A stretch of DNA of 63,823 bases, taken from the NCBI GenBank assembly GCA_035289425.1, contig DATDXC010000074.1, positions 1-63,823 of the forward strand. The letters run 5' to 3'. This DNA is from Candidatus Nanoarchaeia archaeon. Its GTDB lineage: Archaea > Nanobdellota > Nanobdellia > Woesearchaeales > DATDXC01. The position numbers and the translations under genes are program-made. This document shows positions 9,369 to 41,475 of the stretch, piece after piece. The notes beneath the pieces were generated by a model, which made no database searches, was not told the origin of the DNA, and saw only the letters and a program-made list of their open reading frames with translations. Position 1 is the stretch's first letter; each line of letters starts with the position of its first letter.

Positions 9369-10430
9369 ATGAGTGTAATTGAAGTTGATGAGACTCGACT
9401 AAGTGAAACTGTATCTGAAATATTACGTATCGGAATTTTGGCTGCAGATGAAAGCCATGGTTCTCCACAGAGACCAAAGACCATTGAAAGAAGACTCGCT
9501 AGTTTTGGTATACCCAATGATGAAGTACATGTTGATGCATGGCGTAAACTTGTGAGAGAAACCCCCCTCTTAGGAGATTATGTCAGCGGCATCATACTAG
9601 AAGGGTCACGAGTTCTTACCGATGCTTCGATTTATGCAGAAAGGGGCATTGTCCCTGGAGTTAAAGTTGATAAGGGCAATACGACCCTTACTGTTGGCCC
9701 ACATCAGGAGCCACTGACTGTGGGATTAGATGGTCTGCATTCCACAGTAGAAGTTTTTAGGGATTATGGGGCTCGGTTTACCAAGTGGAGGACAACCACC
9801 TCAATCAGCGATATATTACCAACTGATCAAGCAATTCGTGAAAATATGGGGACTCATGGCGAATCAGGTTATATTGTCCAAAGCGTTGGTCTCGTTCCTA
9901 TACTTGAGCCAGAAGTTGAGATCAAGGGAAATCATTCTTTGGAGACATCTTACACAGTAACATCTCGTGTTCTAAAAGCATGGGCAGAGCAGGTGCAGAA
10001 ACAGGGAGTTTACTTACCTGGTGCAATCCTAAAAACCAGTTTTGTAATATATGGCGATAAATTTACCGGTCAACGAAGCTATGCCGAAGTTGCCAAAGCA
10101 ACTCTAAGGTGTTTAATGGAAAATGTCCCCAAAGAGGTAGGTGGAGTAGTGTTCCTTTCTGGCGGGCAGTCAGATTTGGAAGCAATGAATCATCTTAATG
10201 AGCTGCAAAATCTGCGGATGGGTCAGCATCCTACACCTTGGCCAGTTACATTCTCTTATTCAAGAGCCCTGCAGAATGATGCTATGGAAATTTGGGGGGG
10301 CATGCCAGCGAATGTGGAAAGGGCCCAACAAGCGTTGCTTGAGCGGGCTTCAGCAGCATTGATGGCTACCCAAGGAGTTTTGCCGGCTGGTTATGAATTT
10401 CAGTTTGTTCCATCAAGAAAGGCACATTAA
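9369..10430 (+). CDS. fructose-bisphosphate aldolase, class I (eukaryote/bacterial Glycolytic family), paralog 2
   Basis: Same motif set: LAADESHGS, FTKWRTT, VPILEPEV, ILKTSFV, VFLSGGQ and VTFSYSRA. By eye about half the positions match paralog 1. GGGGGATGA SD upstream. Confidence 0.9.
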   Translation: MSVIEVDETRLSETVSEILRIGILAADESHGSPQRPKTIERRLASFGIPNDEVHVDAWRKLVRETPLLGDYVSGIILEGSRVLTDASIYAERGIVPGVKVDKGNTTLTVGPHQEPLTVGLDGLHSTVEVFRDYGARFTKWRTTTSISDILPTDQAIRENMGTHGESGYIVQSVGLVPILEPEVEIKGNHSLETSYTVTSRVLKAWAEQVQKQGVYLPGAILKTSFVIYGDKFTGQRSYAEVAKATLRCLMENVPKEVGGVVFLSGGQSDLEAMNHLNELQNLRMGQHPTPWPVTFSYSRALQNDAMEIWGGMPANVERAQQALLERASAALMATQGVLPAGYEFQFVPSRKAH

Positions 10431-11665: not shown

Positions 11666-11799
11666 AAGAAAGACGGTATAAAAATGTTTTGGTTGAAATT
11701 TTTGTCACCAATTTGGGACATAAGTGTCGACGATCAAATGAAAATGTTTTTAAAGCGATTACCACTTTCAATATTCATCACTAGTTGGGGGGGGTACAT

Positions 11800-14602: not shown

Positions 14603-16261
14603 CTACATCTTCTCCAACACATCAATCCCTAAGAGACTAAGTCCATTCTTCAGCACTTTCTGCACGCATTTAATCAAAATTAAACGTGCTTTCCTGTGTT
14701 CTGGAGCAGCCTTCAGGACAGGACAGGCATTGTAGAAATGGGAAAACTTGGAACTTAATTCAAAGATATAGTTGGCAATCAAGTTTGGTTTCAACTGTTC
14801 GGTTGCTTCTTTCACGACTTCAGGAAATTTTTGAAGCCATTTTATCAATTCAATCTCCTCATTTGTTTCCAATAAGCTATAATCTACCTTTCCCTTGACT
14901 TCTGCCTCATTCTTTTCTAATATGGAGGATATTCTGGCATACGCATACTGCAAGTAGGGGCCCGAATCACCTTCAAAACTCAATGCCTGGTCCCAATCGA
15001 ATAAGACGTTTTTCTCATTGCTTATTTTTAGTATAGCATACTTTATGGCACCATACGCAATCTTCTTAGCGTTTTCTTCTTTAACTTCACCATGCCTTTT
15101 TTGGATCTCTTTTCGTGCCTTTTCCAAAGCTTCTTTCATGAAATCTTCCAGTAAAATGACGTTGCCCTTGCGGGTTGACATCTTTTCATCCTGCAATAAG
15201 ATAAATGAGTAGGTAACCAATCTTGACGGTTTATGCTTCAACAAATCCAGTGCAGCAGAAATCTGCTGGTGGTACAGCTTGTGATCTTCGCCAAGGACAA
15301 TGATGTTCTCTCCTTTTTTCTTGTCAATGTTATACGCCAGATCCCTGAGGACATACAATGAAGTGCCATCCCCTCTTGTCAATACTAGAACAGGGCTCTT
15401 CATCGGCAGCTTGAATTCTTCCTGATTGAGGACTTTCCTTCCTTCATCATCGGTAAAGACTTTGCCTGTTTTTTCTAATTTCTTTAAGATCTCGTCTGTC
15501 TTCTTGTTTCCTAGATATTCTGACTCATAATCAAAGAAGTCATATTTTATGTCCAATTCGGCAAGAATAGCTGTCTGCCCTTTGATGCAGGTATCAATTA
15601 TTTTCTTATGCTCCTCTTTAATCTTCTTGTCTCCTTCCTCCAATCTCTTTAGTATCTCAAAAACCTTCTTTTCTATGGTAGGATCTGCTTCAACTTTCTT
15701 GTTGATATCGATATAGATGTTCAATAGGTCATTGAAAGTAGGCTTTTTACCTTTGGATCCCAGCAGAAGCATTGCAATCTGCTTTCCGAAATCATTCACC
15801 AGATAATGGACTTTGACATCATAACCTTGGAACCTTAGGATTCTGACAATAGAGTCACCAATAAGCGCATTACGAGCTCTCCCCACGTGAGGGGATGCAT
15901 TGGGGTTGATAGAAGTATGTTCTACGATAATCTTCTTATTTTTTCCCAGTCCCAAACTCCCATACTCCTCATTATTCTCAATATCTTTCAGGACATTCTC
16001 TGAAAGGCTTTTCTTATTAACAAAAAAATTCAGATACGGACCCTTTACTTCAACTTTGTTTATTATCTTGCTTAAATCAATCTTTTTGGCAAGCTCCTGT
16101 GCAATCTCAATAGGACTTTTCTTGTATACTTTTGCCAGGCTAAAACAGGGAAATGCAAAGTCGCCCAACTCCGGATTAGGTGGGATTTCCAGAACAATAT
16201 CCTTTTGTTTTGTCTCTTTCTCAAGTATTTTTGTAATCTCTTTCTTGAAGTCCATACCCAA
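14603..16261 (-). CDS. argS: arginine--tRNA ligase
   Basis: HTSINPNASPHVGRARN class I motif region, MSTRKG (KMSKS equivalent), and a C-terminal DALR-type anticodon-binding domain. Confidence 0.95.
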   Translation of the reverse strand: MGMDFKKEITKILEKETKQKDIVLEIPPNPELGDFAFPCFSLAKVYKKSPIEIAQELAKKIDLSKIINKVEVKGPYLNFFVNKKSLSENVLKDIENNEEYGSLGLGKNKKIIVEHTSINPNASPHVGRARNALIGDSIVRILRFQGYDVKVHYLVNDFGKQIAMLLLGSKGKKPTFNDLLNIYIDINKKVEADPTIEKKVFEILKRLEEGDKKIKEEHKKIIDTCIKGQTAILAELDIKYDFFDYESEYLGNKKTDEILKKLEKTGKVFTDDEGRKVLNQEEFKLPMKSPVLVLTRGDGTSLYVLRDLAYNIDKKKGENIIVLGEDHKLYHQQISAALDLLKHKPSRLVTYSFILLQDEKMSTRKGNVILLEDFMKEALEKARKEIQKRHGEVKEENAKKIAYGAIKYAILKISNEKNVLFDWDQALSFEGDSGPYLQYAYARISSILEKNEAEVKGKVDYSLLETNEEIELIKWLQKFPEVVKEATEQLKPNLIANYIFELSSKFSHFYNACPVLKAAPEHRKARLILIKCVQKVLKNGLSLLGIDVLEKM

Positions 16262-16278
16262 TGAATGCGAGCGAGAAA

Positions 16279-17454
16279 TTATAAATGTTTCGATTGTAGA
16301 TTTTTCTTGACTTCTTTATACGCTTGGCGGAAAGATGCGCCTTTTTTAACCAGGTCATACACTTTTTGAGTGGCATACAGATCAGGAGTCATTGCTTTGC
16401 TGCATTTATCCTTGTTGACCTTCAATTGGGAGATGACTAACTCCATTATCTCCACGCAATCTTTGGTGGTTTGGAGGCCTTTCATCACCGGCTCTTTGGT
16501 CAGTTGCAGATCACGATTGTAGCCTGAAGGCAGGTTGCCTATCAAGCTCTTCAATTGGAATTCATAGCCTAAGACAATTGAATATTTTGCCCGTGTCAAT
16601 TCCAGCACATCGGGATTCTTCTTCTGGGGCATGATTGAGGATCCTGTCGTGAATTCATCAGGAATCGAAAAAAAGCCAAATTCCTGCATAGAAAACAGGA
16701 TAAGGTCAGTTGCCAGCTTGTTTATGGTTGCCAGTATATTTGACATAACATTCAAGATTATTGCTTCATGCTTGCCGCGGGAATTCTGGGCATAGAGAGA
16801 ATTCTTGTAGTTTTCCTTGAACTTGAGCTCGCTCTTGGTGATGTCTTTATCAATCTTTAAGGGAACTCCATATCCCGCAGCAGTCCCCAATGGATTTTTG
16901 TCTATGATGTCTACTGCATTATCCAACAGTTTAATATCATCTTCCAATGATTCAATGAAGCTCTCTGCCCATATTTTTGTTGAGGAAGGCATCGCTTTCT
17001 GCATGTGGGTGTACCCAGGCATGTCCGCTGTTGGTATTTTTTTAAGGGCTGCAATCAGATTCAGGAGGGATTTAAAGATTAGGAGCAATTCATCCTTCTC
17101 ATACAGCTTCATGGCTGCAACCACCTGGTCATTTCTAGATCTTGCGGTGTGGATTTTCTTGCCTAATTCACCTAATTTTTTGGTTAGGTGGTTCTCAATT
17201 GCGGTGTGACAGTCTTCATCTTCTAGTGTTACCGCAAATGTACCTTTCTTATCCAGCTCAATGATATTTTTGAGCTCCTGCGCAAGCTTTTTTTGCTCTA
17301 TAGCTGACAATATGCCTATTTTCTCGAGCATCTTAGTGTGGGCTATGGAAGCATAGCAGTCATACTGTAATAGTTCTTTATCTAAGATGAAGTCATTTCC
17401 TACGGTGAACTTCTCTATCTTTTTGTTAACTGAGGTGTTGTATAGTTTCGGCAT
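16279..17454 (-). CDS. argH: argininosuccinate lyase (short form)
   Basis: Fumarate-lyase signature GSSIMPQKKNPDVLEL. Start moved to the ATG at 17454 because the track start is a TTG. The protein ends ...FRQAYKEVKKNLQSKHL, so it lacks the usual C-terminal extension. Only 17 nt separate it from the argS start. Confidence 0.9.
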   Translation of the reverse strand: MPKLYNTSVNKKIEKFTVGNDFILDKELLQYDCYASIAHTKMLEKIGILSAIEQKKLAQELKNIIELDKKGTFAVTLEDEDCHTAIENHLTKKLGELGKKIHTARSRNDQVVAAMKLYEKDELLLIFKSLLNLIAALKKIPTADMPGYTHMQKAMPSSTKIWAESFIESLEDDIKLLDNAVDIIDKNPLGTAAGYGVPLKIDKDITKSELKFKENYKNSLYAQNSRGKHEAIILNVMSNILATINKLATDLILFSMQEFGFFSIPDEFTTGSSIMPQKKNPDVLELTRAKYSIVLGYEFQLKSLIGNLPSGYNRDLQLTKEPVMKGLQTTKDCVEIMELVISQLKVNKDKCSKAMTPDLYATQKVYDLVKKGASFRQAYKEVKKNLQSKHL

Positions 17455-17483
17455 TGGAGTTTGTGAATTCCTTCTTTTCAAAT

Positions 17484-17600
17484 TCAATCAGTATACTTCG
17501 TTTTTTGCCTCCCGGCAAAAAGCTGTATTTGCGAAGTACAGCGCAAAACCAAAAAATTTCTCGGAGTGAAATTTTTGTTAATATTGAATATCTGTTGATT
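17484..17600 (-). promoter_or_regulatory. conserved structured 5' leader of argH-argS (copy A)
   Basis: Aligns by eye at about 75-80% with 41284-41410. Three hairpins: 17552-17576, 17528-17547, and 17502-17521 with a GGGA loop on the minus strand. No AUG in the leader. Confidence 0.6.
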
Positions 17601-17610
17601 ACTATCTTAA

Positions 17611-17669
17611 TTTATAAACTTATTGACCAGAAAAAAACTTATGGGACATAATTGTCTAGAATCAGACAT
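17611..17669 (-). promoter_or_regulatory. arg promoter/operator (copy A): TATA box + GGACA-N4-TGTCy palindrome + third half-site
   Basis: TTTATAAA 17611-17618; TATTGAC 17621-17627; a 16-nt spacer; GGACATAATTGTCT 17644-17657; a 6-nt spacer; AGACA 17664-17668. Spacings are identical in copies B and C. Confidence 0.65.
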
Positions 17670-18270
17670 CAGCCTTTCTGTATGCAATCAGATCCTTTAT
17701 CGAGTATATTCCCAGTTTATGCTGGCCTGCAAAATTCTCAAGGTCATCCAGCTTTGCCATCTCGCCATTATCCTTCATAATCTCTGCTATGATTGCTGCG
17801 GGGTACAAACTCGCCAGCTTGCAGAAATCAATGGCAGCTTCGGTATGGCCTTCCCTTTGCAGGACGCCATTTTCCTTGGCTCTTAATGGGAATATATGGC
17901 CGGGCTTATGGAAATCTGCCGGCTTAGATGCCGGATCAATCAATGCCTTGATGGTAGTGGCCCTGTCTTGTGCGCTGACGCCGGTAGTTACCTCTTTTTT
18001 GGCGTCAACTGAGATGGTGAATGCGCACCTCGTGTGGTCATCGGATTTCGCCATCAATGGAATCTCCAATGCATCGAGCCTTTTGCCTTCCATGGGCAGG
18101 CACATGATACCTCGAGCCCATTTTAGCATATTATTTATCTTAGATGGAGTAACCTTTTCTGCTGCAAGGATGAGGTCGCCTTCGTTCTCCCTGTTTTCAT
18201 CATCTACAATGATGATGAAATCCCCCCTTTGAAGGCTTTTTGTGGCCTCTTCAACTTTTCCGAAACGCAT
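17662..18270 (-). CDS. ribB: 3,4-dihydroxy-2-butanone 4-phosphate synthase
   Basis: DDENRENEGDLILAAE and REGHTEAAIDF motifs. Confidence 0.9.
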   Translation of the reverse strand: MRFGKVEEATKSLQRGDFIIIVDDENRENEGDLILAAEKVTPSKINNMLKWARGIMCLPMEGKRLDALEIPLMAKSDDHTRCAFTISVDAKKEVTTGVSAQDRATTIKALIDPASKPADFHKPGHIFPLRAKENGVLQREGHTEAAIDFCKLASLYPAAIIAEIMKDNGEMAKLDDLENFAGQHKLGIYSIKDLIAYRKADV

Positions 18271-23350: not shown

Positions 23351-24022
23351 ATGCAAGAACCAGGAACTGTCGCAGCTGCAATGATTAATGTAGGAAAGCT
23401 AGCTTATCAACAAGGTTTATTTCGAGGTACTGATGGGAATATCTCAGTAAGAGAAAAACGATTATATTACGTTACAGAAAGCGGCGCTAATATAGGGTTA
23501 ATGGATGAACATCAAATTCTTTTAGGTTTTAGTGAAAGTCTTTTAGCTGCTTCAAGGAAACCATGCAAAGATAGGCCGTCAAAAGAATTTCCAGTTCATA
23601 TGGAATTTTATGATGCTGGTTACGGCGCAGTTGTCCATCTGCACGGACTATATGCCCAACATTTTGCTGAAACTAACTTAAGGTATAATCATCCTTTAGC
23701 AAGAGAACCTGTTTATCAGATCGAAAGGACAGAGCTCGGGCCAGTATTTGTGGTAGACTATTGTGAACCAGGAACATTAGTTGCAAAAGGTCTTGACCTA
23801 AAAACGACAAGGGCAGTTATAGTAAGAGGCCACGGAACTTTTGTTGCTGGAAGAGGAGAAGGAATAAACGCTTTAGATGATGCATTTGCAGCAACACAGA
23901 TGATTGAAGGTTTAGTGCAACTGATCATGATAAGAGAACACGATGCTAAACCGATTCCACCTGATAGATTAGTAGCAACATTAAAAAAATATGATGGAAG
24001 ATTATTACAGCCTTGGAGGTAA
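23351..24022 (+). CDS. class II aldolase/adducin N-terminal domain family protein
   Basis: FRGTDGNISVR, VVHLHGLYA and VIVRGHGTFVAG, as in fuculose-P aldolase, ribulose-5-P 4-epimerase and MtnB-type enzymes. Confidence 0.8.
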   Translation: MQEPGTVAAAMINVGKLAYQQGLFRGTDGNISVREKRLYYVTESGANIGLMDEHQILLGFSESLLAASRKPCKDRPSKEFPVHMEFYDAGYGAVVHLHGLYAQHFAETNLRYNHPLAREPVYQIERTELGPVFVVDYCEPGTLVAKGLDLKTTRAVIVRGHGTFVAGRGEGINALDDAFAATQMIEGLVQLIMIREHDAKPIPPDRLVATLKKYDGRLLQPWR

Positions 24023-24028
24023 AATAAG

Positions 24029-25288
24029 ATGACAAAACCAACTTTAGAAGCATGTTTAAGATTTCATGAAGAACAAGATCCAGATAAAAGACAGTTACCT
24101 ATTCTTATACCAGGACTAAACACTTATGCTTATGGTATAAACAGAGAAGCTAAAGAAAAAGGTTTCATAGACCAAGATAGGATGTCTTTGCAAGAAATAG
24201 AATCAGAGCTTTTTTTGCCACAGATTGAAGCAGGAATTCTTCAAGTTGAATTAGCAGAAGATATTTTTGAAAAGACAGATGAACCAGGAATTTTTAAAGG
24301 ACTTGACTTCAATGGGTATTTCCCACAGTGGCTACAACAAAGGGTTGATCTTATAAACAGGCTTGCCGAAAGACATAATCTTAAGATCCAATCAACAGGA
24401 ACCGGTCAATTTCTTTATACAAGGATGCTTGCCATAGCCAAAACTGGATGCATGGAATTGGGCGAGTCAGATAGTGAAGCAGTAATGAGAACATTTGATA
24501 ATCTAATAAAATTGGCAAATGCAGTTGGAGCGAGAATTGTTGGTGGCCATAGGGTAATGACTGCTAAGCCAGACGAACACGCTAAAATGTATTCCATAGA
24601 TCACTTTGCCAGAGAATTCGGATGGGATTTACCAACCACAGTAAAAATCAGAGATATAACAGAAGCAGAAGCATATAACATAGCAATGGCAATTCGACTA
24701 AACAAAAATCGATTTGGAATATCAAACACTACTGAGTTGATGTATCAACATTACGGTATGGCCCCAGTTGGTGTTGATCAGATGAATAGGATGCATTCAA
24801 TAATACAAGCAAATAGCCGTTGTCAAGTGTATGCTCATATGGATATTGGGCATGTAGCGGTTGGCGCAGGTGGACCAAAACAAAGACGGGATTATAACCT
24901 CAGAGAATATGGGACAGAAGTGGTCTGGCCTGCTTGGGTTGTTCACTTTAACTCCTTATATGATAATGCACATGGAATGCCAACTGCTGAAAATGTAGCA
25001 AAAGATCTTAGAGTTAGAGATGGACAAGAAACAACAAAAAAATCACCTCACCCAGATCTTTATTGCGATGTTTACCGAGATTGGCTAGTTCCGACAGCTG
25101 AAAGAACTAGAGTTATGCAACTAACTCCAGAACCAAAAGATACAAAAGATGTAAGCCGACTAGTCAGAGAAGCAAAAGAAACATATCGATTAATACAAGA
25201 ACAGTTTGCCGCTACGCATACTGACGTTCAAGGGTATCTGGTTCCAAATGGAATGCTGAAGGCATTTAAAGAGAGATTTGTACTGTAA
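24029..25288 (+). CDS. hypothetical protein (possibly xylose-isomerase-like TIM-barrel metalloenzyme)
   Basis: 419 aa preceded by a GGAGGT SD. The only hint is an HMDIGH-type motif; the ORF is secure but the function is not. Confidence 0.5.
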   Translation: MTKPTLEACLRFHEEQDPDKRQLPILIPGLNTYAYGINREAKEKGFIDQDRMSLQEIESELFLPQIEAGILQVELAEDIFEKTDEPGIFKGLDFNGYFPQWLQQRVDLINRLAERHNLKIQSTGTGQFLYTRMLAIAKTGCMELGESDSEAVMRTFDNLIKLANAVGARIVGGHRVMTAKPDEHAKMYSIDHFAREFGWDLPTTVKIRDITEAEAYNIAMAIRLNKNRFGISNTTELMYQHYGMAPVGVDQMNRMHSIIQANSRCQVYAHMDIGHVAVGAGGPKQRRDYNLREYGTEVVWPAWVVHFNSLYDNAHGMPTAENVAKDLRVRDGQETTKKSPHPDLYCDVYRDWLVPTAERTRVMQLTPEPKDTKDVSRLVREAKETYRLIQEQFAATHTDVQGYLVPNGMLKAFKERFVL

Positions 25289-25424
25289 AACAACAATATT
25301 CCACTCATCGCTAATATGTGGTTTTTGATTTAATTCTTCTTTTTTCTATCCGTAAATATTTTGAGCTATTCTTAAATGACAACAAAGTTTTAAATAAATC
25401 AGCGTTTTATTAAATGATTAGGGG

Positions 25425-28400
25425 GTGTTGATAACGTGTAAGTACAGTTTTGTGCTTGTATGTTTTATTTTCTTATTAGTTGTTCTGTTATCCGTTTCTG
25501 CTAACGAAACTTATTCTTTCGTCAATGAAACTGCTGATGAAACGATCTCAACCGAAGAAACAAACAAAACTGAGAAGATTATATCAATAGATTTATCGTA
25601 TGAGAAAGGAACGCCTTTTGACGAAGATGATGATGGCACTGCCTATACTGATGATATAATTGATTTTTCTGTCAATAAAACATCTTTTAACTGGAATGTT
25701 AATGAAGAGAAATTATGCACAAGCTGGAAAACCACCAGCTTAGAAACAGACGAATCAACAATAGCGTGCTATGGCTATGGGCAATGCTGCGGTTTTATCG
25801 GATTGACTCCAACAAGAGATAGCTGGAATGAAGTCTTTTACTCTAATTATGGGTTGTATGGGGCAACTTACAATAATACTATATCTGCGCAAGTTGTTTA
25901 TGTCGATTATAACTTAAGCTTTGAAAATCCGTATGAAGATGTTGCTTATAGCGAATGGTCTTCATTGAAGGCAGATTTTATTGAGAAAACAGTAACTATC
26001 TTTACAAAAATAACTGAATTGATTGTTGACCAGATTAATGCAGTGAAAGGCGCAATAGTAAACATACAAGCTAAATTAAGCTACGCCAATGATTCACCTA
26101 TGCCACTAGAGACAGTAAAACTATATTCAAATGGCAGTTTAGTTGAAACAGGAATGACAGATTTAACAGGAAATATTATCTTTTTATTGAACACCTCTGA
26201 ATTAGAATTTGGCAGTCATCTGGTTAATATAACATTTGAAGGAAAAGAAAGAGTTAATGATCAAAGAACAATTTCGATAAAGCCAAGCTATAATTTTACT
26301 TTGATTAATATTAAAGATAATGAAACAGAAATCAATGTAAATGAAGTTCAAATAGATGATCATTCTATAACAAGAACAGCAAATACTGAAACTGTTTGTC
26401 ATCCTGTTGAAGAAATCACTGAAATTTGCAGAGAAGAATGCATGGATTGGGATACTTCTGAAAACGGAACTGTCTATTGCTTAGGCGGTTATGGCGAGGT
26501 TTGCAGGAATAATGCTATAACCAAGCAAACCTGCGATAAGACCATATATGTTGGGATAAAATTTGTCAAAGAAGATGGTAAATGGAAAGATGTAAAAGAA
26601 GCAAGAAGCTTAAAAAATTATTTTAAAGTTGTTAAGAATGAAGACCCTGAATGGCCTGCTGAAGTTATAGACTTTAACTGGACTTCTATCACTTTAGATT
26701 TAGATATTGGTGATGATAAACATAAAAATAAAGATATTGAACTAAAAGTTTATGATAAAGAGGATAAAACAAAAAGACCAAAAGATAACAATGGCAACGA
26801 AAAAAACAAAGATAAAAAGATAAATATAAAGAATAAAGGAGAAAAACAAAGGGAGATTATTGATTTGAGCGATACTGCAGAAAGCATTCTTACACAAGAG
26901 ATTAAATGGGGCGATAATTCTACTACATTTCAGATTATTGAGGGAAATGATACATCTTTAGGAGAAGGCTATGATTATGATTATTATACTTTATGGGCTG
27001 ATGTCCATAATTCCCCCGGAGCATTTGTCACTAAGTCCAGCTCTGAGTTAAGAATTGGTGATGACGGTAATGTCTACACAGGTGATTACACTTGGATACT
27101 AAGGGGATTTGCACCAATAAATACCTCCGGGTTAGATGATTCAGCCTCAATTTCTTCTGCAAAGTTTTGTGCAAAGGTAACATTGGTTAGGGACCAGGAT
27201 AATGATGGGTATGATTATCTTGTTTTGGTGGAAAGCAAGCAATCTAGCTTCACTAATCTAATTGCTGGAGATTTTGATCAATGTGGAGATGCTATCAACA
27301 ATCCTTCTGAATTGAGCAATAGGATTGATTTTGGAACCATGAGTGCAGGCAGTTGGACTTGCTGGGATTTAAATGCTGCCGGATTGGCTAATATAAGCAA
27401 AACAGGGATAACTCCGCTTGCTATTAGAGAAGGCCATGATGTCGAAAATTCACCAATTGATCCATCATTGTCAAATAGACTTTACTTATCATCATATGAA
27501 TCTGGTGATGCTCCATATCTAAATGTAACCCAATCCTCAAATCAGCTTTCCATTTCATCCTGCACTATTCTGAATGCTCCTGGTGCGGTGTACACACTGA
27601 CGCAGGACATAATAAACTCGACTGCATCAAACTGCATGGACATTACATCCAATAATATAACCTTAGATTGCCAAGGGCATACTATTGATGGAAATGATGT
27701 CGCTGATTTTGGTGTAAGTATTTTAAGAAATTCGTCTGAAATTACTAACGTCACTGTTAAAAATTGTAAAGTGACTGATTGGGATAGCGCTGCTGTACAA
27801 AGCGAAGGTTCAAACAACGGAATTTCTCAAAATAATTTTATTAATTTAACCATAAGTTCAAATCCTTTTTATGGTTTGAGGGTCTGGGATTCACATAGTA
27901 ATATTTTTGAGAATATAACCATAGATGGAAGTAAGGTTAGCATGTTTATGATAGCAAATTATAAATCAAATTGTGACAACAGATTGATAAATGTTTATGG
28001 GGCAGAAAATAAACTCGTATTATACTATAATGAAACAATAAACATTCAGGATTACAACAATAATTTTTCTGATATTGTACTTTGTGGTGCGGACAATTCA
28101 ACATTAAGCAATATAATCTCAAGTGGGAACAGGACAAAAGGGATAATAATAACTGCCACGAATAATGTATCGCTTTCAAATATCACAGTTGAGAATATAA
28201 CCTCTATTAGGTTCTATCAATCAAATAATATATCCCTAATAAGCTCAGATATATCATCAAGTGAGAATGGCATAGTCTCTACTTTTTCCAATGATAATGA
28301 TATTATGGGTAATGTATTCCAAGATAATGACCAAGGCATTTCATTTGGTGTATTTTCTCAGGATTGGGCGATTAGTAATAATCTTCTTAATAATACCCTA

Positions 28401-31400
28401 AATATTGAATTTGGTGCTTCAACTACAAATAACTGGAACACATCAAACCAATCTGTGGTAAATATTATTGGTGGGTCTTATCTTGGCGGCAATTATTGGG
28501 CTTATCCGAATGGTACAGGCTATTCACAAGTTTGTGATGATATCAATTCAGATGGTTTTTGTGATGATCCTTATGATGTTGAAAATAATGTTCCATGTAC
28601 ATCGGGGGTTAATTGCTCAAATAACACGGATTATCTGCCTTTGACAGGTTTTAATGATACAACAAACATCATAGACTGTGCAAATTTAACCCAGGCAAGC
28701 ACAGAGTATACTTTACAGAATAATGTAACTGCAAATGGAACATGCTTTGTGGTAAATTCAAATGATATAACCCTTGATTTAAATGGATATACTATAATTG
28801 GAAATGGAACCGGCTATGGTGTTTATATTGATAGTTCTGGCTCAACTATCAAAAACGGCAATATCTACAATTTTGAGAATGGCGTTTATATTTCGTCTTA
28901 TTCTGATAATAACTTGCTTCTAAACAATAATATATATGAAAATATAAATGAAGAAATATTTGATGAAGGCAACATCTCAACTAAGAACTATCTCGTTTAT
29001 AATAACAGCTTTGGGGAGATAAGATGGGTTAATGAGATGTTCTTACAAAATTTAACAACAGAAGGAGATTTAACGTTACCTGGAAATATCGGGATAGGAA
29101 ATAACTCTGCTTACTTCAATTCAATAGAATTTTTTGGTTTAATTAATTCAAGCGCAAATATAACACTTACCAAAATTGGTCTTAGGGGGTTTATACTTCC
29201 CGCCGTGCTTAGAGATGACAAAGTCTGTACAGATTGCCATGCATTAACCAATTTAACTGATAGTAATGTGGTATTTAATGTAACTGGATGGAGTAATTAT
29301 TCCATTGGTGAAGGATGGCAGGAGATTATAGATGGAATGTTTATTGTAAAATTTGAATCAGGGGTGGTACTTATGCCCGAAAACAAAACTGCACTACCTA
29401 TACAAAACTTAACAATTATCCCAGATTCCATTAATCAATTAATTATAAACTTTGGTGTTACATATATCGAAAAGGTATTCCCAGAACAGGATAATGCCTT
29501 GAAGGAAATTTACAAACTAAATGTATCCGATACAGTAAACATCTCAGATGCTGTCTTGGCATTTGAGAATGATACAAATGTGGTGTATGCTGCACCAGTT
29601 ATTAGGATTAAGCAAACTGTCTGGCCTAATGATCCATTATTCTTTCCAAATCAATGGGCTTTACTTAACACAACGAACATAAGCGAGGCATGGAATCTTA
29701 CAAAAGGTGATTCTAACATAGTGATTGCAATAATAGATAGTGGGATAGATCCATCACATCAGGACTTAAAAAATAATATATGGAACAACACCAATGAAAC
29801 TCCCAATGATGGTTTGGACAATGATAACAATGGATTTATAGATGATATAATGGGGTGGGATTTTGTAAGTTATGATGGAAGTGGCCTTTATCAGGTTTGT
29901 ACTGATGATTGCACCGAACCAGACAATTCTTTAAACGATATTGATGGGCATGGCACTCATGTGGCGGGAATAGCCGGTGCTGTAACCAACAATAGTTTTG
30001 GTATATCTGGCGTTTGTTATAATTGTACTATTTTGCCCCTTAAAGCAGGGTATGAAATTTTTGACGCTATCCAATTCGGATATTATGCTGTTTTGAACAC
30101 AGACGATGTTGCGAGAGCCATAATTTATGCTGCTGATAATGGGGCAGATATCATTAGCATGAGTTTCGGAGGATCAGAATCTTTATTAGAAGAAGATGCT
30201 ATAGATTACGCTGTGAACAAAGGAGTCATCTTGGTTGCAGCTGCTGGAAATAATGGAAACAATAATTCAGTATATCCAGCAGCGTACAAAAATGTGCTCT
30301 CCGTGGCTGCTACAAACAAAGAAGGTGAAAAGGCTTCGTACTCTACTTACGGTAGCTGGGTCGATCTTGCTGCTCCTGGAGATGACATATATAGCACTTG
30401 GATTGGTGGGGGGTTCCAGTCTCTCACCGGAACTTCCATGGCTACGCCAATTGTATCTGGTACGGTCGCTTTATTACTTAGTGTAAATCCTACATTAAAC
30501 GTGAAGGATGTAGCATATATATTGAATCAGACCGCAAAAATTGTGGGTGTTCCTGACTACAACCTTTCAAGAATAGATGTGTTAGAAGCAGTCAACATGA
30601 CATTAAATTTTGTGAGTATAACTTCTCCACGACCCGACCAAACCTTTAGTCTTTCTTGTGATGATGGTTTAAGCTTTAATGTAACATTGGTGCAACCAGC
30701 GGTCGTTTGTAAGGTGGAAGTTGACTTAGGCAACGGAAAAAAGAACCATACTATGACTAGCGTTGACACTTATAACTTTAATTGGTCAATTCCTTACCAA
30801 AACTTTAGTTTGGGTTCCTATTTGACAAACATATGGTGTAATTTTGCCGATGGAAAGAACAGTACCAGTATGAGGAATTTTATAATAGATTATACAAAAA
30901 TAAATAGTTGCGAAATGCTCCAATGCATGAACCAACATATGAATGAGTCATATACATTGGAAAATGATATTAATTGCTCAGATACTGCGACAGGAGCCGG
31001 ATTTGGCCCAATCGGAGATGCATACAATAATATGTTTAATGGCACATTGAATGGACAGAATCATATAATCCATGGCCTGCATATCAACAGGCCAGCTGAA
31101 AATTATATAGGCTTATTTGGATATACTGGTCCTAATTTCAATGTTTCCAATCTTGGTCTTGAGGATGTAAACATAACAGGCAATGATATTGTTGGCACTA
31201 TTGTAGGGCACCAACAAGGTATTGTAGGTGAGGTGTATGCTACTGGAAGTGTTTCAGGAGATGATGATGTTGGGGGCATGGTTGGAAGAAATCATGGCAC
31301 TATAAAAAATACATACGCAAATGTCAGCCTTACAGCAACAGGACAAGGTAGTGGTGGCATCGCTGGCGTTGGTGTAAATATAATCAATTCATCATACGCT

Positions 31401-33533
31401 GTTGGCCCAGTCAGTGGATATGGAAATGTGGGCGGCTTGGTAGGATTTTTTGTGGGAAATATTTCTAATTCTTTTGCATCAAATGATGTATCGGGAGTTT
31501 CATCTATTGGCGGTATTATTGGCTATAATGGAGGTACCATAACAAACTCTTATTGGAATAATCATTCAGACAATCCTAATGATTGTTATAGTGGGGGCAA
31601 TACTGAATGTAATGTGGTTCAAAGCGATTTAGAGCACTTTAAAGGTGATGTATACTCTCATCGAGAGCCAATGAAAAGCTGGCAATTTTTTGAGATTTGG
31701 GAGGAACGTGAAGATAATTTCCCTTCGTTAGTTGGTTTTGGATTGGGTGATTATTATGACTCAACAAAAGTAACTAAGTGTGGGAGGTTGATGCTCGAAA
31801 ACGTTACATATACCCTGCAAAATGATATTATGATTTCTGGAAACTGTTTTAATATAACTACAAGAAACATTACTTTGGATTTTGTGAGATTCAACATTAC
31901 TGGAGACGGTTCGGGGAATGGGATAACTATTAGCGGTTATAACAACTCTATTATTAAGGAAGGGGTGATTTCAGGTTTCAAAAATGGAATTTTGATTGAT
32001 AGCACTTCCGGAGATAATCTAATACTTAACAACAACTTATTTAGCAATACAGATTGGGAAATTCAAGACCTTTCTTCTCTCAGCTACAAAAATCAGCTGA
32101 TCTTTAACAACACATTTGGGTCAATTGAATGGATTAATCAGAGTTTCTTGCAGAACTTAACCACCAAAGGCAATCTAATTTTCCATAAATATCAAGAAGA
32201 TCCGAACGATGTCAGCGCACAAAGTTTATATTTTTATGTAAACTATACCAAACCTCTTGGGTCCGTAGGTTCCGAGTGGGAAGTGAAACATGGTACACTA
32301 CAACCCTACAAGATTTCGGTTCCCCCACAGTGTTGGGACTACCTTGCGGATAAAATTGTACTAAAAATATCGAGTATATCTAACGATGGGGCAGGTCATG
32401 CAATATCCCAACCTTATTGTTACGATGGTTTTGTCTGGCAACAAATAGGTAAAACATCAATAAGTAGTTTCTCATATGCAAGCGGCGGCTATTATGGCTT
32501 CCAAAACGCTTATGATGGAGATTGGAACACGTATATGGGTTGGAGGTGGAATAGCCCAGCAGGTTTTGTGAACCAGGTTTCTCCTCAATCAACATTTGTT
32601 ATCTATGAAGAGGGCATTTGGTGGCAGTTCTCCAATACTAACATTAGTATATTAAATAATTCCATATACTTGAATCCACAATTCTTTGTTGGAAATATGA
32701 ATTCATCGGTTAATATTAGTTTACATGGACTTACTTATGATGGTAGCTACCCCGCAATTTTAAGAAAGCCCCTCAGGAATAATACTGAGTGTACTGATTG
32801 TGAAAAATCTGGTACATTTAGTGGAAGCACAGTTAATTTCCAAGTAGATAATTTTGATGGAAATTATTCTGTGGGCAAATACGTGCGAGATTCCAGCAAT
32901 GTAACATTATATTCTGGATGGAATATGTTTGCGATTACTTTAGAAAATAAAGACAATAATACTGATAGGAACATATCCTTATCTTCTTCAGGAGATGGTA
33001 GGAATCTAATAGGTTATTCATCAGATACAGAACTAAATACTTCGTCAATTAGCTTCACACCAGCAGGCGGAAACGAGAAGACATGGGATGAAGCAGTAAC
33101 AGATGGAGACATTAAAAGTGAATTGACATTTTATGATAACAATCCATCATATAAGAAATATTTGCACACCCCATTGCAAGTTAATAATCTGAAAAACAAA
33201 ACAGGCTATTGGGTTCAAGCAAATGTCCCTGGTAATTTGACTATAAAAAATGTTGGTGGATCATTTACTAATGAATCTTATGAATGGAAAAATTTGATGT
33301 TCACGAATTGCACAGAAGGAATGGTGGTTGGTGTGGATTGTTTGGAATTGAATATAAGTGATGCTAATAATACCGGGTGGATAGATCAAAGAATACAATA
33401 TTGGGAAACTAATCCACCAACAGGAAATGTACGTTGGATGATAATGCCAGATAATAAAGAAGAACTGAAACCATGGGAAGGCTTTGTGATTGATGCCAAA
33501 AAAGATAATATCCAACTTTTGAGGCAGAATTAA
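25425..33533 (+). CDS. giant secreted multidomain surface protein: beta-helix modules + subtilisin-like S8 protease + GLUG repeats
   Basis: Signal peptide ...VVLLSVSA|NE. NosD/pectin-lyase-like beta-helix modules start at about 27561, 28677 and 31780. An I9-like propeptide (from 29337) precedes a subtilase with D1438 (29736), H1509 (29949) and S1671 (30435) in IDSG, HGTHVAG and GTSMATP contexts. GLUG-type repeats span 31100-31560. N-x-S/T sequons are very frequent. The start codon is uncertain: GTG 25425 or TTG 25428. Confidence 0.85.
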   Translation: MLITCKYSFVLVCFIFLLVVLLSVSANETYSFVNETADETISTEETNKTEKIISIDLSYEKGTPFDEDDDGTAYTDDIIDFSVNKTSFNWNVNEEKLCTSWKTTSLETDESTIACYGYGQCCGFIGLTPTRDSWNEVFYSNYGLYGATYNNTISAQVVYVDYNLSFENPYEDVAYSEWSSLKADFIEKTVTIFTKITELIVDQINAVKGAIVNIQAKLSYANDSPMPLETVKLYSNGSLVETGMTDLTGNIIFLLNTSELEFGSHLVNITFEGKERVNDQRTISIKPSYNFTLINIKDNETEINVNEVQIDDHSITRTANTETVCHPVEEITEICREECMDWDTSENGTVYCLGGYGEVCRNNAITKQTCDKTIYVGIKFVKEDGKWKDVKEARSLKNYFKVVKNEDPEWPAEVIDFNWTSITLDLDIGDDKHKNKDIELKVYDKEDKTKRPKDNNGNEKNKDKKINIKNKGEKQREIIDLSDTAESILTQEIKWGDNSTTFQIIEGNDTSLGEGYDYDYYTLWADVHNSPGAFVTKSSSELRIGDDGNVYTGDYTWILRGFAPINTSGLDDSASISSAKFCAKVTLVRDQDNDGYDYLVLVESKQSSFTNLIAGDFDQCGDAINNPSELSNRIDFGTMSAGSWTCWDLNAAGLANISKTGITPLAIREGHDVENSPIDPSLSNRLYLSSYESGDAPYLNVTQSSNQLSISSCTILNAPGAVYTLTQDIINSTASNCMDITSNNITLDCQGHTIDGNDVADFGVSILRNSSEITNVTVKNCKVTDWDSAAVQSEGSNNGISQNNFINLTISSNPFYGLRVWDSHSNIFENITIDGSKVSMFMIANYKSNCDNRLINVYGAENKLVLYYNETINIQDYNNNFSDIVLCGADNSTLSNIISSGNRTKGIIITATNNVSLSNITVENITSIRFYQSNNISLISSDISSSENGIVSTFSNDNDIMGNVFQDNDQGISFGVFSQDWAISNNLLNNTLNIEFGASTTNNWNTSNQSVVNIIGGSYLGGNYWAYPNGTGYSQVCDDINSDGFCDDPYDVENNVPCTSGVNCSNNTDYLPLTGFNDTTNIIDCANLTQASTEYTLQNNVTANGTCFVVNSNDITLDLNGYTIIGNGTGYGVYIDSSGSTIKNGNIYNFENGVYISSYSDNNLLLNNNIYENINEEIFDEGNISTKNYLVYNNSFGEIRWVNEMFLQNLTTEGDLTLPGNIGIGNNSAYFNSIEFFGLINSSANITLTKIGLRGFILPAVLRDDKVCTDCHALTNLTDSNVVFNVTGWSNYSIGEGWQEIIDGMFIVKFESGVVLMPENKTALPIQNLTIIPDSINQLIINFGVTYIEKVFPEQDNALKEIYKLNVSDTVNISDAVLAFENDTNVVYAAPVIRIKQTVWPNDPLFFPNQWALLNTTNISEAWNLTKGDSNIVIAIIDSGIDPSHQDLKNNIWNNTNETPNDGLDNDNNGFIDDIMGWDFVSYDGSGLYQVCTDDCTEPDNSLNDIDGHGTHVAGIAGAVTNNSFGISGVCYNCTILPLKAGYEIFDAIQFGYYAVLNTDDVARAIIYAADNGADIISMSFGGSESLLEEDAIDYAVNKGVILVAAAGNNGNNNSVYPAAYKNVLSVAATNKEGEKASYSTYGSWVDLAAPGDDIYSTWIGGGFQSLTGTSMATPIVSGTVALLLSVNPTLNVKDVAYILNQTAKIVGVPDYNLSRIDVLEAVNMTLNFVSITSPRPDQTFSLSCDDGLSFNVTLVQPAVVCKVEVDLGNGKKNHTMTSVDTYNFNWSIPYQNFSLGSYLTNIWCNFADGKNSTSMRNFIIDYTKINSCEMLQCMNQHMNESYTLENDINCSDTATGAGFGPIGDAYNNMFNGTLNGQNHIIHGLHINRPAENYIGLFGYTGPNFNVSNLGLEDVNITGNDIVGTIVGHQQGIVGEVYATGSVSGDDDVGGMVGRNHGTIKNTYANVSLTATGQGSGGIAGVGVNIINSSYAVGPVSGYGNVGGLVGFFVGNISNSFASNDVSGVSSIGGIIGYNGGTITNSYWNNHSDNPNDCYSGGNTECNVVQSDLEHFKGDVYSHREPMKSWQFFEIWEEREDNFPSLVGFGLGDYYDSTKVTKCGRLMLENVTYTLQNDIMISGNCFNITTRNITLDFVRFNITGDGSGNGITISGYNNSIIKEGVISGFKNGILIDSTSGDNLILNNNLFSNTDWEIQDLSSLSYKNQLIFNNTFGSIEWINQSFLQNLTTKGNLIFHKYQEDPNDVSAQSLYFYVNYTKPLGSVGSEWEVKHGTLQPYKISVPPQCWDYLADKIVLKISSISNDGAGHAISQPYCYDGFVWQQIGKTSISSFSYASGGYYGFQNAYDGDWNTYMGWRWNSPAGFVNQVSPQSTFVIYEEGIWWQFSNTNISILNNSIYLNPQFFVGNMNSSVNISLHGLTYDGSYPAILRKPLRNNTECTDCEKSGTFSGSTVNFQVDNFDGNYSVGKYVRDSSNVTLYSGWNMFAITLENKDNNTDRNISLSSSGDGRNLIGYSSDTELNTSSISFTPAGGNEKTWDEAVTDGDIKSELTFYDNNPSYKKYLHTPLQVNNLKNKTGYWVQANVPGNLTIKNVGGSFTNESYEWKNLMFTNCTEGMVVGVDCLELNISDANNTGWIDQRIQYWETNPPTGNVRWMIMPDNKEELKPWEGFVIDAKKDNIQLLRQN

Positions 33534-33575
33534 ATGGGAATATTTATAAGTATAAACTACTTCCAAGTGATAAAA

Positions 33576-34502
33576 ATGATAAGAAATAAATTCAGTAAAG
33601 CACTGCTGGCTGCATTAAGTGTTTATATAGGAAGCATAGCTTATCGCAATAGATGCCATGCTGGAAAAATAGAAATTGTCCCTTGGTGTGATGAAACTCC
33701 CATTGGTAGCCAAGTTATAATAGATGACGACTCTCATAGTTCAGAATCACCACCAACACCAGAACCAAATACGTTAATAAGAGACACTAATGGTTGGTCC
33801 GTAATCGGTATCCCTTCATCAACACCAATATCGGTTTTACTTAATATCACAATTAATGGATATACAGGCAACGCTAATCTCCACCTGTCGGTTAATTATC
33901 TACAAGAATATAGTACTAGTAGAGTAATTACTATGGAATCCGAAACGATTATGGGTGAAAGAAAAACAAGAGACATACGTTATGATATCGCACATGGGAC
34001 TAACATAAATGGTAAACTATACGCTATATACCATTTTACAAACACAATCTCAGGTTACGCAAACCACCAAGTTGTTGCAACTGTTAAAGTCAATATTGGT
34101 CCAGCAGATACTAATGTTTACATAATTGGGATTACAAAAGATACAAACGGAACAGTTAATCTGCAAACCAAAGGTCAAGCAGGAACATGGGTTAGGCACA
34201 ATGTTGCTTATCTAGATGATTTAACAAATGACTGGACAAATTCTATTGTAGTAACAAATAATGAAGTACATATTCCTGTAACAGATGAAACATTAGCAAA
34301 TGGACAATCAATTGTGATAAGTAATGTTCCTGTAGCCTCGCTTAAAAGATTATATCGATTATTATCAAGAAAACAGGGTGTACCAGAAGGAGGATATACA
34401 ACAAATTTAGAACAAGAAGTAACTCAACCATTTTATAAAAAATTAGATAGATATGGGCCAAGAAAAAATCAATTGTATAAGCAAAAAGCATTAGTTCGTT
34501 AA
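33576..34502 (+). CDS. secreted/membrane-anchored hypothetical protein with basic QPFYK C-terminal tail
   Basis: Start set to the ATG at 33576 (MIRNKFSKALLAALSV...). No known domain recognised. The C-terminus is ...LYRLLSRKQGVPEGGYTTNLEQEVTQPFYKKLDRYGPRKNQLYKQKALVR. Confidence 0.6.
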   Translation: MIRNKFSKALLAALSVYIGSIAYRNRCHAGKIEIVPWCDETPIGSQVIIDDDSHSSESPPTPEPNTLIRDTNGWSVIGIPSSTPISVLLNITINGYTGNANLHLSVNYLQEYSTSRVITMESETIMGERKTRDIRYDIAHGTNINGKLYAIYHFTNTISGYANHQVVATVKVNIGPADTNVYIIGITKDTNGTVNLQTKGQAGTWVRHNVAYLDDLTNDWTNSIVVTNNEVHIPVTDETLANGQSIVISNVPVASLKRLYRLLSRKQGVPEGGYTTNLEQEVTQPFYKKLDRYGPRKNQLYKQKALVR

Positions 34503-34597
34503 AATTGAATAAAAAAGAGGAGTTAGATGATATCAATAAAAAAAATTAGTTTTAAAATAACAAAATGGTGTTCAAGCAAAGGAAAGGTGGTTTGGAA

Positions 34598-35848
34598 ATG
34601 ATTTTGGCAGGCATATTAGCAGCAACTTTAACAGCTGGCAGAGAAGCAAATGCGTATACTGTTACGCAATTAACCCAAAACGGATGTGCTAATTGGTCTC
34701 CCGCATATAGTCCTGATGGAGATAATATCGTTTTTGCATCGAGTAGAGATGGGAATAGTGAGATATACGTAATGGATGCCAATGGTAATAATCAAAGAAG
34801 GTTAACTCACACGGATGAGTTTAACGAATATTCTCCTGTTTTTTCTCCAGATGGGCAAAAAATAGCATATACGCGACAACCAACGAATTCTCTAACTAAC
34901 GGTGGCCTTTACACTATGGACTCAGCTAATGGAGATAACATTACGTTATTGGTGGTGGGTAGGTTATACTCTCCCTCATGGTCTCATGATGGTAATAAAA
35001 TTGCATATGCTATATCTTTGGATATGAGCAGTGCTATCTATTTTTTTAATTTAAAAACTTCAAACTCAGAATATGTTGTAATGGGGAATAATCCATCATG
35101 GTCTTCTGATGGTACCAATCTAACATATGCACGATGGTTAGACAATACAACACCAATTCATTCTTTTATTTATAACCTTAATCTGTTAACGGGCAATGAA
35201 CAACTTTTAGTTGAAGGTTCTCTTCCTAATTGGGACTATAGAAAAGACAAGATTATTTTTAATGATACCAATGGGTTTATCTGTGTGATAGACCATAATG
35301 GAAGCAATATTACCCAGATAGTTAGAAATTCAACTAATAGTATTCCTGCAGTCCCCAAATGGGGTCCAGACGGAACTAAAGCTGTGTTTATGGGGCGGGA
35401 CATAACACAAATGGGTAGCAATAATATTATTTATGTTGTTTCTGGAATTTTAAGGCGGCCAGAGATAAATAGATTAAGAGTTGATAGCAGTACTGCGATA
35501 ATAGATGCCAAAGTATCTCCAGAATCTTTTATTAGTATAGAGTATGCTGGTAACATTTATTTTACAAATTCTGTTGTTACTAATTTTGGATTGATGCCTA
35601 ATTTCGGTCAGGGTTTTGCAGCAAACCAGTTTGTTGTTCATGTTCCGACAAATTCAGATAGCCAATTTTATAGGTTAATTGCAGAAGTAACAAACCAACC
35701 AACTAACATACCAAGTGACAACCCAATTGGGATTAATGCCCCAAATTTAAAACAAGAAAAACAACCTTTTTACAAATCTTTGCCAAGATATCGGGAAAAA
35801 AAAGACGCTTTATTTAGAAGTGAGGGTTTTGTTCCGTTTGTACGTTAA
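34598..35848 (+). CDS. TolB-like PD40 beta-propeller protein with basic QPFYK C-terminal tail
   Basis: PD40 repeats: YSPDGDNIVFASSRDGNSEIYVMDANG, FSPDGQKIAYT, WSHDGNKIAYA, WSSDGTNLTYA and WGPDGTKAVFMG. Start set to the ATG at 34598, after a GGAAAGGTGG SD. The C-terminus is ...FYRLIAEV...KQEKQPFYKSLPRYREKKDALFRSEGFVPFVR. Confidence 0.75.
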   Translation: MILAGILAATLTAGREANAYTVTQLTQNGCANWSPAYSPDGDNIVFASSRDGNSEIYVMDANGNNQRRLTHTDEFNEYSPVFSPDGQKIAYTRQPTNSLTNGGLYTMDSANGDNITLLVVGRLYSPSWSHDGNKIAYAISLDMSSAIYFFNLKTSNSEYVVMGNNPSWSSDGTNLTYARWLDNTTPIHSFIYNLNLLTGNEQLLVEGSLPNWDYRKDKIIFNDTNGFICVIDHNGSNITQIVRNSTNSIPAVPKWGPDGTKAVFMGRDITQMGSNNIIYVVSGILRRPEINRLRVDSSTAIIDAKVSPESFISIEYAGNIYFTNSVVTNFGLMPNFGQGFAANQFVVHVPTNSDSQFYRLIAEVTNQPTNIPSDNPIGINAPNLKQEKQPFYKSLPRYREKKDALFRSEGFVPFVR

Positions 35849-35880
35849 AATCAATTTATTAAAAACAAAAGAGGTAAAAA

Positions 35881-38154: not shown

Positions 38155-38175
38155 GGCAATAAGGGGGTGTTTTCA

Positions 38176-39996: not shown

Positions 39997-40039
39997 TTTC
40001 AGAGCGTTTAATTTTAGAAAAAATAAAAAATTATATTTT

Positions 40040-41254: not shown

Positions 41255-41283
41255 TTTGAATAAAATTGCTTTTTTCTAAACTT

Positions 41284-41410
41284 TAATCAATATACTGCGC
41301 TTTTTGCCTCCCGGCAAAAAGCCGTATTTGCGCTGTGTATTGCAAATCCCAAAATTTCCGTTCCACGGAAATTTTGTTAAGATTGAATATTACTGCGCAA
41401 TTGATTATTA
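41284..41410 (-). promoter_or_regulatory. conserved structured 5' leader of argG (copy B)
   Basis: Paralogous to 17484-17600. Hairpins at 41351-41375 (10 bp), 41327-41346, and 41300-41321 (9 bp, GGGA loop on the minus strand). No AUG in the leader. Confidence 0.6.
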
Positions 41411-41416
41411 TCCTAA

Positions 41417-41475
41417 TTTATAAACTTATTGACTCAAAGAAGACAGTATGGACAAATTTGTCCTATTTTGGACAT
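41417..41475 (-). promoter_or_regulatory. arg promoter/operator (copy B)
   Basis: TTTATAAA 41417-41424; TATTGAC 41427-41433; a 16-nt spacer; perfect palindrome GGACAAATTTGTCC 41450-41463; a 6-nt spacer; GGACA 41470-41474, adjacent to the argC stop codon. Confidence 0.65.

Follow-up and report, generated by a model that had tools for sequence, protein, structure and literature searches.

A Candidate Arginine Operator and a Two-Copy Hairpin Leader Upstream of argH and argG in a Woesearchaeota Genome

In a tiny groundwater archaeon of the Woesearchaeota (DPANN), the argH and argG genes are preceded by closely similar modules of ~115 nt, each containing three inverted repeats and extending from the predicted transcription start to the last ~20 nt before the ATG. 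We suggest, with a probability of about 0.5, that this leader (Y) belongs, as its downstream portion, to an arg promoter cassette found at two loci in a single Woesearchaeota species, and that it is a structured 5′ UTR specific to this lineage, either passive or attenuating and made of hairpins and U-tracts, arginine control being exerted mainly at an operator in the DNA. The cis-element that is truly conserved is a TGTCY/RGACA module, a candidate DNA operator/promoter of the arginine regulon. A preliminary description of the same DNA had proposed the leader as a conserved candidate cis-regulatory RNA; what stands of this proposal is a long hairpin-containing 5′ UTR free of AUG, and what does not is its conservation, as two copies only were found and none in relatives.

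Promoters and Hairpins of the Two Leaders

We analyzed a stretch of 63,823 nt (hereafter the window), whose arg genes were named via NCBIfam models and all lie on the minus strand (table 1). A ribD-ribB-argH-argS block is located 24 kb away from the argF-argG cluster. The nearest relatives of ArgG (80–82% identity) come from Woesearchaeota/DPANN MAGs, and the next ones from Deltaproteobacteria (69–71% identity), which suggests a gene of bacterial type. The nearest ArgH relatives, labeled Woesearchaeota or Nanoarchaeota, are only 76% identical, so that no sister species is available for comparison. Identical ArgH and ArgG proteins were detected on contigs from several groundwater metagenomes, and the population is present in ENA ERZ28563803, ERZ4903137, ERZ27254754, and ERZ27254763; the upstream regions of these same-population contigs (L090–L097) equal the window base for base, with no population variation, and are thus uninformative on the conservation of the leader. 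ArgH is a short protein, covering just positions 8–386 of the 455-position argH model, and nearly all of its Woesearchaeota homologs cover only this part. Between argG and the ribD-ribB-argH block stands a low-GC region (~24000–40000; 34–38% GC vs. about 41–44% elsewhere in the window), which holds a 2477-aa ORF (26100–33533) and other large plus-strand ORFs. Because argG is directly upstream of ribD in two relatives (L098 and L099), this region looks like an inserted island.

The same 20-mer, comprising a BRE/TATA core, precedes argH and argG, and a copy with two mismatches is found before argF (46624–46643, minus strand). The distance from the end of the TATA 8-mer to the ATG is 22 nt at argF, 22–25 nt at eight other genes of the window and 21–25 nt in leaderless genes across the clade; in contrast, it is 156 nt at argH and 162 nt at argG, in good agreement with the ~160 nt previously estimated for both. 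Using a position weight matrix trained on 18 leaderless promoters, we found that the distal TATA boxes of argH and argG score 15.7 bits each, well within the range of true promoters (12–20 bits), and that no site above 4 bits lies nearer the ATG of either gene. A cryptic proximal promoter, which the preliminary description had named as a finding that would speak against it, is thus rejected on matrix score and spacing. A BRE/TATA promoter followed by a long 5′ UTR is plausible at both genes, as had been proposed from the distal TATA box. Since leaderless genes space TATA and ATG by 22–25 nt, transcription is predicted to start at ~17586–17589 (argH) and ~41391–41394 (argG). No Shine-Dalgarno motif was recognized before the ATG of argH or argG; other leadered genes of the window have motifs of the GGTGA or GAGGT type.

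The leader had been assigned to an argH-argS unit. Its position at argH is confirmed, but a single transcription unit is not, because argS has its own leaderless promoter and the two genes need not be cotranscribed. The argS TATA box (TTTATAAT, 16278–16285, minus strand) is conserved and contains the argH stop codon TAA; the promoter aaCCTTTATAATc also precedes argS in L103, L106, and L107.

Table 1. Arginine-Related Genes, Promoter Elements, Predicted Leaders, Hairpins and Copies of Element X (Positions in the Window Unless Another Contig Is Named)
Feature	Position	Strand	Remarks
argF	45747-46604	minus	NCBIfam
argJ	44413-45573	minus	NCBIfam
argB	43578-44429	minus	NCBIfam
argD	42449-43588	minus	NCBIfam
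argC	41475-42452	minus	NCBIfam
argG	40040-41254	minus	404 aa; NF001770, 573 bits
argH	16279-17454	minus	391 aa; TIGR00838, 332 bits
argS	14603-16255	minus	NCBIfam
ribB	17662-18270	minus	NCBIfam; ribD in same block
Operator, argH	17644-17669	minus	ATGTC (17665-17669), AGACA-N4-TGTCC (17644-17657)
Operator, argG	41441-41475	minus	ATGTCC (41470-41475), GGACA-N4-TGTCC (41450-41463), TGTCT (41441-41445)
Operator, argF	46651-46685	minus	Same layout
BRE/TATA core, argH	17608-17627	minus	GTCAATAAGTTTATAAATTA; TATA 8-mer 17611-17618; 15.7 bits
BRE/TATA core, argG	41414-41433	minus	20/20 identical to argH copy
Operator and TATA, argF	46627-46685	minus	Third copy, no leader; TATA ends 22 nt before ATG 46604
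argH 5′ UTR (leader Y, copy 1)	17455-17589	minus	Predicted, ~135 nt
argG 5′ UTR (leader Y, copy 2)	41255-41394	minus	Predicted, ~140 nt
H1, argH	17552-17576	minus	AAAAAUUUC/GAAAUUUUU, 7-nt loop; -3.9 kcal/mol; then U6GGU4
H1, argG	41351-41375	minus	-9.5 kcal/mol; then U4GGGAU3
H2, argH	17528-17547	minus	UUUGCG/CGCAAA, 8-nt loop; -5.0 kcal/mol; marginal
H2, argG	41327-41346	minus	5 bp and A.C mismatch; -2.9 kcal/mol
H3, argH	17502-17521	minus	UUUUUGCC-GGGA-GGCAAAAA; -9.7 kcal/mol with flanks
H3, argG	41301-41320	minus	Same sequence; -16.8 kcal/mol in extended form with flanks
Conserved leader tail	17478-17501	minus	ACGAAGUAUACUGAUUGAAUUUGA
Element X, argF-argJ spacer	45595-45746	minus	~150 nt, before argJ, no promoter
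Element X, L107 (JAIYPB010000108.1)	1411-1520 and 9833-9987		argG and argH leaders
Diverged X-like copy	1402-1558	minus	Outer stem GGUAACAACAAUGACG/CGUCAUAGUUGUUGUUACC; upstream of rps17e promoter

The blocks upstream of argH and argG share 83% identity over ~240 nt and 88% over a 114-nt core, which exceeds the 75–80% first estimated by eye. All three hairpins described earlier were located at both genes, H3 of argG being two nucleotides shorter than the 41300–41321 originally given for it. Within H1, the stem is kept while the apex differs, as had been noticed: all nine pairs hold in both copies in a common register, and in two of them both partners have changed (A-U to U-A, U-A to C-G). The only structural evidence that the two sequences offer lies in these double changes, which come down to shifting the pairing of an A/U palindrome by one base. 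H3 proved invariant, and its loop reads GGGA (GNRA) on the minus strand only, also as described; both copies have the same 22-mer around it, which occurs nowhere else in the window (0 expected by chance). The earlier picture of H2 was correct for argH, whereas the argG counterpart has a mismatch. In both copies H2 is no better than shuffled sequences (9 of 200 shuffles fold as well in argH and 25 of 200 in argG), and the minimum-energy fold of argG has a different pairing in its place. H1 and H3 are solid and H2 is marginal. Across the two copies, which are two sequences only, H1 thus has two double changes, H2 one broken pair and H3 none.

Whole-leader z-scores are −2.2 for argH, which is modest, and −7.2 for argG, and the opposite strand is about as structured as the leader strand. 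The leader consists of three separate A/U-rich hairpins in which we found neither a junction or pseudoknot core nor a conserved unpaired core beyond H3. Minimum-energy folds differ between the two copies, and no alternative (terminator/antiterminator) pairing is common to both. U-tracts follow H1 (U6 in argH, U4 in argG), and an invariant U5 is located inside H3, the tracts lying at about 17543–17548, 17517–17521, and 41316–41320; a scan for bacterial-type terminators flagged H3 alone, on the opposite strand. In the conserved tail, AUUGAAU is the inverted counterpart of an AUUCAAU located at the leader's 5′ end.

Several other readings of these hairpins were rejected. Neither leader contains an ATG, as had been stated, and ORFs starting from TTG lie in different frames in the two copies, which argues against a leader peptide, including a leader-peptide attenuator, or another small ORF. 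Antisense coding would be disrupted in every frame by the 7- and 4-nt indels between the copies. A C/D-box sRNA was dismissed, since CUGA in argH is UUGA in argG and UGAUGU is upstream of TATA, and base pairing between the H3 loop and the start region was dismissed too, as the two copies do not share it.

The arg Operator and the Leader in Related Loci

We compared 12 related loci and the window, and observed one operator layout at all three arg promoters of the window and at 17 arg promoters in relatives: ATGTCY, 7–8 nt, RGACA-N4-TGTCY, usually another TGTCY, and then GTCAATA-NN-TTTATAAAT. It was found in L002, L003, L098, L099, L101, L103, L106, L107, L108, and L109. In the window, the argH operator overlaps the ribB stop codon (17662–17664), the ATGTCC of the argG operator overlaps the argC stop codon, and the argG operator is of the argG type found in L107 and L109. 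The palindrome GACAN4TGTC occurs five times in the window vs. 0.65 expected. Two of these occurrences (11717–11728 and 47290–47301) are outside the arg promoters and lack the full operator/TATA layout; one is before a GFO/IDH-type oxidoreductase operon, and the other 15 nt before a gene pair encoding an APH-family kinase and an ACT-domain protein. Arginine control most likely acts at this operator, via a putative DNA-binding factor. In the literature we found nothing relevant on a riboswitch in Woesearchaeota or on an archaeal arg operator.

The distribution of leader Y is very different from that of the operator. Examination of the arg loci of 15 related Woesearchaeota genomes revealed no copy of Y. 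In L001 and L011 argC and argG abut or overlap, and in L002, L003, L098, L099, L101, L106, L108, and L109 argG or argH is leaderless, starting 21–25 nt after TATA. From the two copies we built a covariance model (R1), as the preliminary description had proposed; searches with it yielded no further homolog in ~760 kb (220 kb of Woesearchaeota loci and 537 kb of other loci). In the window and 16 related loci, R1 matched only the two copies and their own reverse strands (the latter at E-values of about 1e-4 to 1e-3), leaving no other copy in the 64-kb window; in the remaining loci it gave only H3-only matches, on contigs that had been fetched via H3. The term conserved, which had been applied to the leader, therefore covers two paralogous copies in one genome, and the lack of structural conservation in relatives, foreseen as an outcome that would weaken the proposal, is largely what we observed, the genes there being mostly leaderless.

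The H3 20-mer (TTTTTGCCGGGAGGCAAAAA) was found in nine metagenome contigs (L081–L089), the flanks of which do not resemble the leader; at 1016–1042 of L087, 27 nt are identical to the argH copy and comprise H3 and its immediate flanks only. Scans of viral contigs for the patterns of Y and of a second element, X (see below), gave no match. When the entire window was scanned against Rfam 15 at gathering thresholds, tRNA-Arg was the only match. Neither leader matched a family in E-value scans, the best sub-threshold results being TD-1 (29.7 bits, threshold 64.5, on the opposite strand) and sRNA162 (14.5 bits, threshold 78). No T-box motifs were found in the leader.

Some relatives carry unrelated leaders, of about 125 nt in L004, 61 nt in L001, and 33 nt in L103. 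The L004 leader (2205–2330) is located before argG and behind the same operator/TATA; it folds weakly (z-score −1.5) and contains a 21-codon ORF, the TGA stop of which overlaps the argG ATG (ATGA).

Origin and Possible Roles of the Leader

The argG copy of leader Y appears to derive from that of the argH promoter, by a copying event that began in the shared promoter core. The spacer that follows TATA at argH of the window (TTAAGATAGTAATC) resembles the argH spacers of relatives (TAAGTGATAGTTTAATC), whose argH ATG falls where the leader of the window begins. On the other hand, argG of the window follows the argH sequence from TATA onward, despite its L107/L109-type argG operator. An argH spacer like that of relatives and an argG promoter that switches to the argH sequence at TATA point to this direction of copying. 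The earlier caveat that the shared block might be a promoter duplication thus largely holds, in the form of a copied promoter-plus-leader cassette.

A reasonable hypothesis is that the module either arose or was inserted near +1 of argH, after which recombination carried a copy to the argG promoter, beginning in the 20-nt promoter core that both genes share and ending about 20 nt before the argG ATG. Leaderless mRNAs would in this way have become leadered mRNAs without a recognizable Shine-Dalgarno sequence. Arginine-dependent control would act mainly on DNA, through a factor binding the operator, and the leader hairpins and U-tracts might make archaeal RNA polymerase terminate prematurely to some extent, affect mRNA stability, or do both. 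Any action of the leader would be that of a generic RNA element and not of a metabolite-sensing riboswitch. The role in attenuation or stability is putative, and the U-tract after H1 is only U4 in argG. In addition, the changes between the copies are unevenly distributed, affecting 11 of 15 loop positions of H1 and H2, 5 of 46 stem positions (4 of them compensatory) and none of the 20 positions of H3; this could be the pattern expected under selection for hairpins, which speaks against our reading. Element X, located at argG and argH of another genome (JAIYPB01), also hints that structured arg leaders are selected.

It is possible, if doubtful, that the leader is instead a neutral or selfish palindromic insertion (MITE- or REP-like) at +1 of an arg promoter, which was recombined to the second promoter and has no regulatory role. 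Its hairpins would then persist by template-switch repair of quasi-palindromes, not by selection. Viewed as DNA, the leader has a rough dyad symmetry: its ends are ATATTCAAT and ATTGAAT, and its own model also matches both copies on the reverse strand, at the E-values given above. The apical parts of the hairpins agree better between the copies when one of them is inverted (H2, 16/20 vs. 14/20; H1 apical part, 17/25 vs. 14/25), as loop inversion gives, although this preference is statistically weak. Template-switch repair could generate such an inverted-apex pattern and keep the stems without selection, and two sequences cannot separate selection from mutation bias. That the leader is species-specific and that L004, L001, and L103 have gained unrelated leaders of their own also agree with an insertion. 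However, both copies known are at arg genes and in the same orientation, with none elsewhere in the window; no target-site duplication was identified, and the terminal repeats are short (7–9 nt in argH) and weaker in argG.

It is unlikely, in our opinion, that the leader is a cis-regulatory RNA that senses arginine status (a metabolite, tRNA-Arg or an RNA-binding protein) and controls read-through or translation of argG and argH. The predicted long 5′ UTR would suit such a function, as would the location at the last two genes of the arginine pathway, the survival of H1 pairing through two-sided changes, and an invariant H3 with a GNRA loop amid otherwise near-saturated loops; the U-tracts could be an archaeal termination platform. 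The main reason for keeping this reading is that element X, which is unrelated, structured and has seven compensatory pairs, holds the same positions in another genome. Nevertheless, leader Y is known from just two paralogous copies and is absent from the relatives examined, has no multi-helix junction, and has no conserved unpaired core beyond H3; H2 is marginal, the minimum-energy folds differ and share no terminator/antiterminator pairing, and the two "compensatory" pairs of H1 come down to the shifted A/U palindrome noted above. With the operator, a means of regulation exists already. A riboswitch has no comparative support and is not the best-supported reading of these sequences.

Two further readings were considered. 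The leader might be a separate small RNA of ~50–110 nt that ends at a U-tract, argH and argG being leaderless genes transcribed from a weak proximal promoter (TTTGAAAA or TTTAGAAA, 18–20 nt before the ATG). Degenerate TATA-like strings do occur at this distance upstream of both ATGs, both start codons lack a Shine-Dalgarno sequence, and the T5–T6 runs of the leader are typical archaeal termination signals; but the proximal sites score at most 4 bits vs. 12–20 bits for true promoters, their spacing is 2–5 nt below that of every leaderless gene, and a proximal promoter would escape control by the operator, which is at the distal promoter, so this is very unlikely. Least probable of all is that H1, H2, and H3 are DNA operators downstream of the start, bound by dimeric proteins that block elongation: H3 is an 8+8 bp inverted repeat, identical with its flanks in both copies, and both strands are equally structured, but the palindromes all differ from one another in sequence, do not resemble the TGTCY operator, and occur at no other arg promoter in the clade.

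Element X and Relationship to Known Systems

Element X, an RNA-like element, is about 110–155 nt long and is present in the argF-argJ spacer of the window and in L107, where both copies stand behind the arg operator/TATA in sense orientation. It is closed by a long stem and has a multi-helix fold with conserved unpaired motifs (GAGGRCGAG, CGGGGUG, and GUCCGAAG). RNAalifold predicted 30 pairs for the three copies, seven of which show compensatory changes. A covariance model of X (R2) recovered these three copies and a diverged one (30 bits, E-value 1e-4), and E-value scans of the window and L107 copies against Rfam gave no match. The diverged copy is located near the Alba and tRNA-Arg(TCG) genes, outside the arg genes, and may be a stand-alone RNA gene, given the TATA-like run that precedes it and the T5 run that follows. 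Every copy of X is centered in a short palindrome, such as AACCC|GGGTT and AAAATTTC|GAAATTTT, indicating that a mobile origin is also possible.

Like leader Y, X lacks an Rfam match and, at argG and argH of L107, fills the stretch that separates the gene from its operator/TATA. Otherwise, the two lack sequence similarity, and the multi-helix fold and seven compensatory pairs distinguish X. At L107 argH, the outermost stem of X has the same sequence as the H1 stem of the argH leader; homology would rest on this A/U-rich stem alone, and chance would give about one A/T-rich 9-mer in common. X is a stronger lead than Y. That Woesearchaeota repeatedly placed structured, arginine-sensing leader RNAs, Y and X among them, behind a common arg operator is quite unlikely in our view.

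Gene regulation in DPANN archaea is essentially unstudied, and the conserved operator/promoter would provide them with a candidate arginine regulon. X adds a second element with covariation that recurs before arg genes in two genomes, and together with the operator it makes arginine regulation in Woesearchaeota testable. If leader Y is only a lineage-specific insertion, its value would be descriptive: it would illustrate that long structured 5′ UTRs can be acquired by archaeal genes that were leaderless, and that coregulated promoters can pass such a leader from one to another via the core they have in common. If either leader responds to a signal, it would represent a new class of archaeal cis-regulatory RNA, and if the arginine-sensing reading is true, Y and X would be the first arginine-pathway riboregulators described in Archaea, alongside a DNA operator.

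Three known systems may be compared with these elements. REP/BIME and MITE-like elements are palindromic intergenic elements, and, like them, leader Y is a short, noncoding, dyad-symmetric hairpin module that is confined to one lineage, occurs more than once and is included in mRNA transcripts. It differs from them in having only two copies, in the same context and orientation, with a terminal match of 7–9 nt, no target-site duplication and no linked transposase, and was not assigned to either class.

Riboswitches and T-box leaders are 5′ leaders that sense metabolites or tRNAs. To our knowledge, few riboswitch classes have been reported in Archaea, for example, TPP and fluoride. The leader shares with these RNAs a long structured 5′ UTR free of AUG before biosynthetic genes, and U-tracts as a possible expression platform; unlike them, it has no Rfam family, cross-species conservation, junction or pseudoknot, shared alternative pairing or T-box motifs.

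In the bacterial ArgR/ARG-box system, a DNA operator overlaps arg promoters. Here too, several arg units have one repeated, partly palindromic DNA motif beside the core promoter. The differences are that the promoters are of the archaeal BRE/TATA type, the half-site is another one and the sites are upstream of TATA, and the likeness concerns the operator, not the leader.
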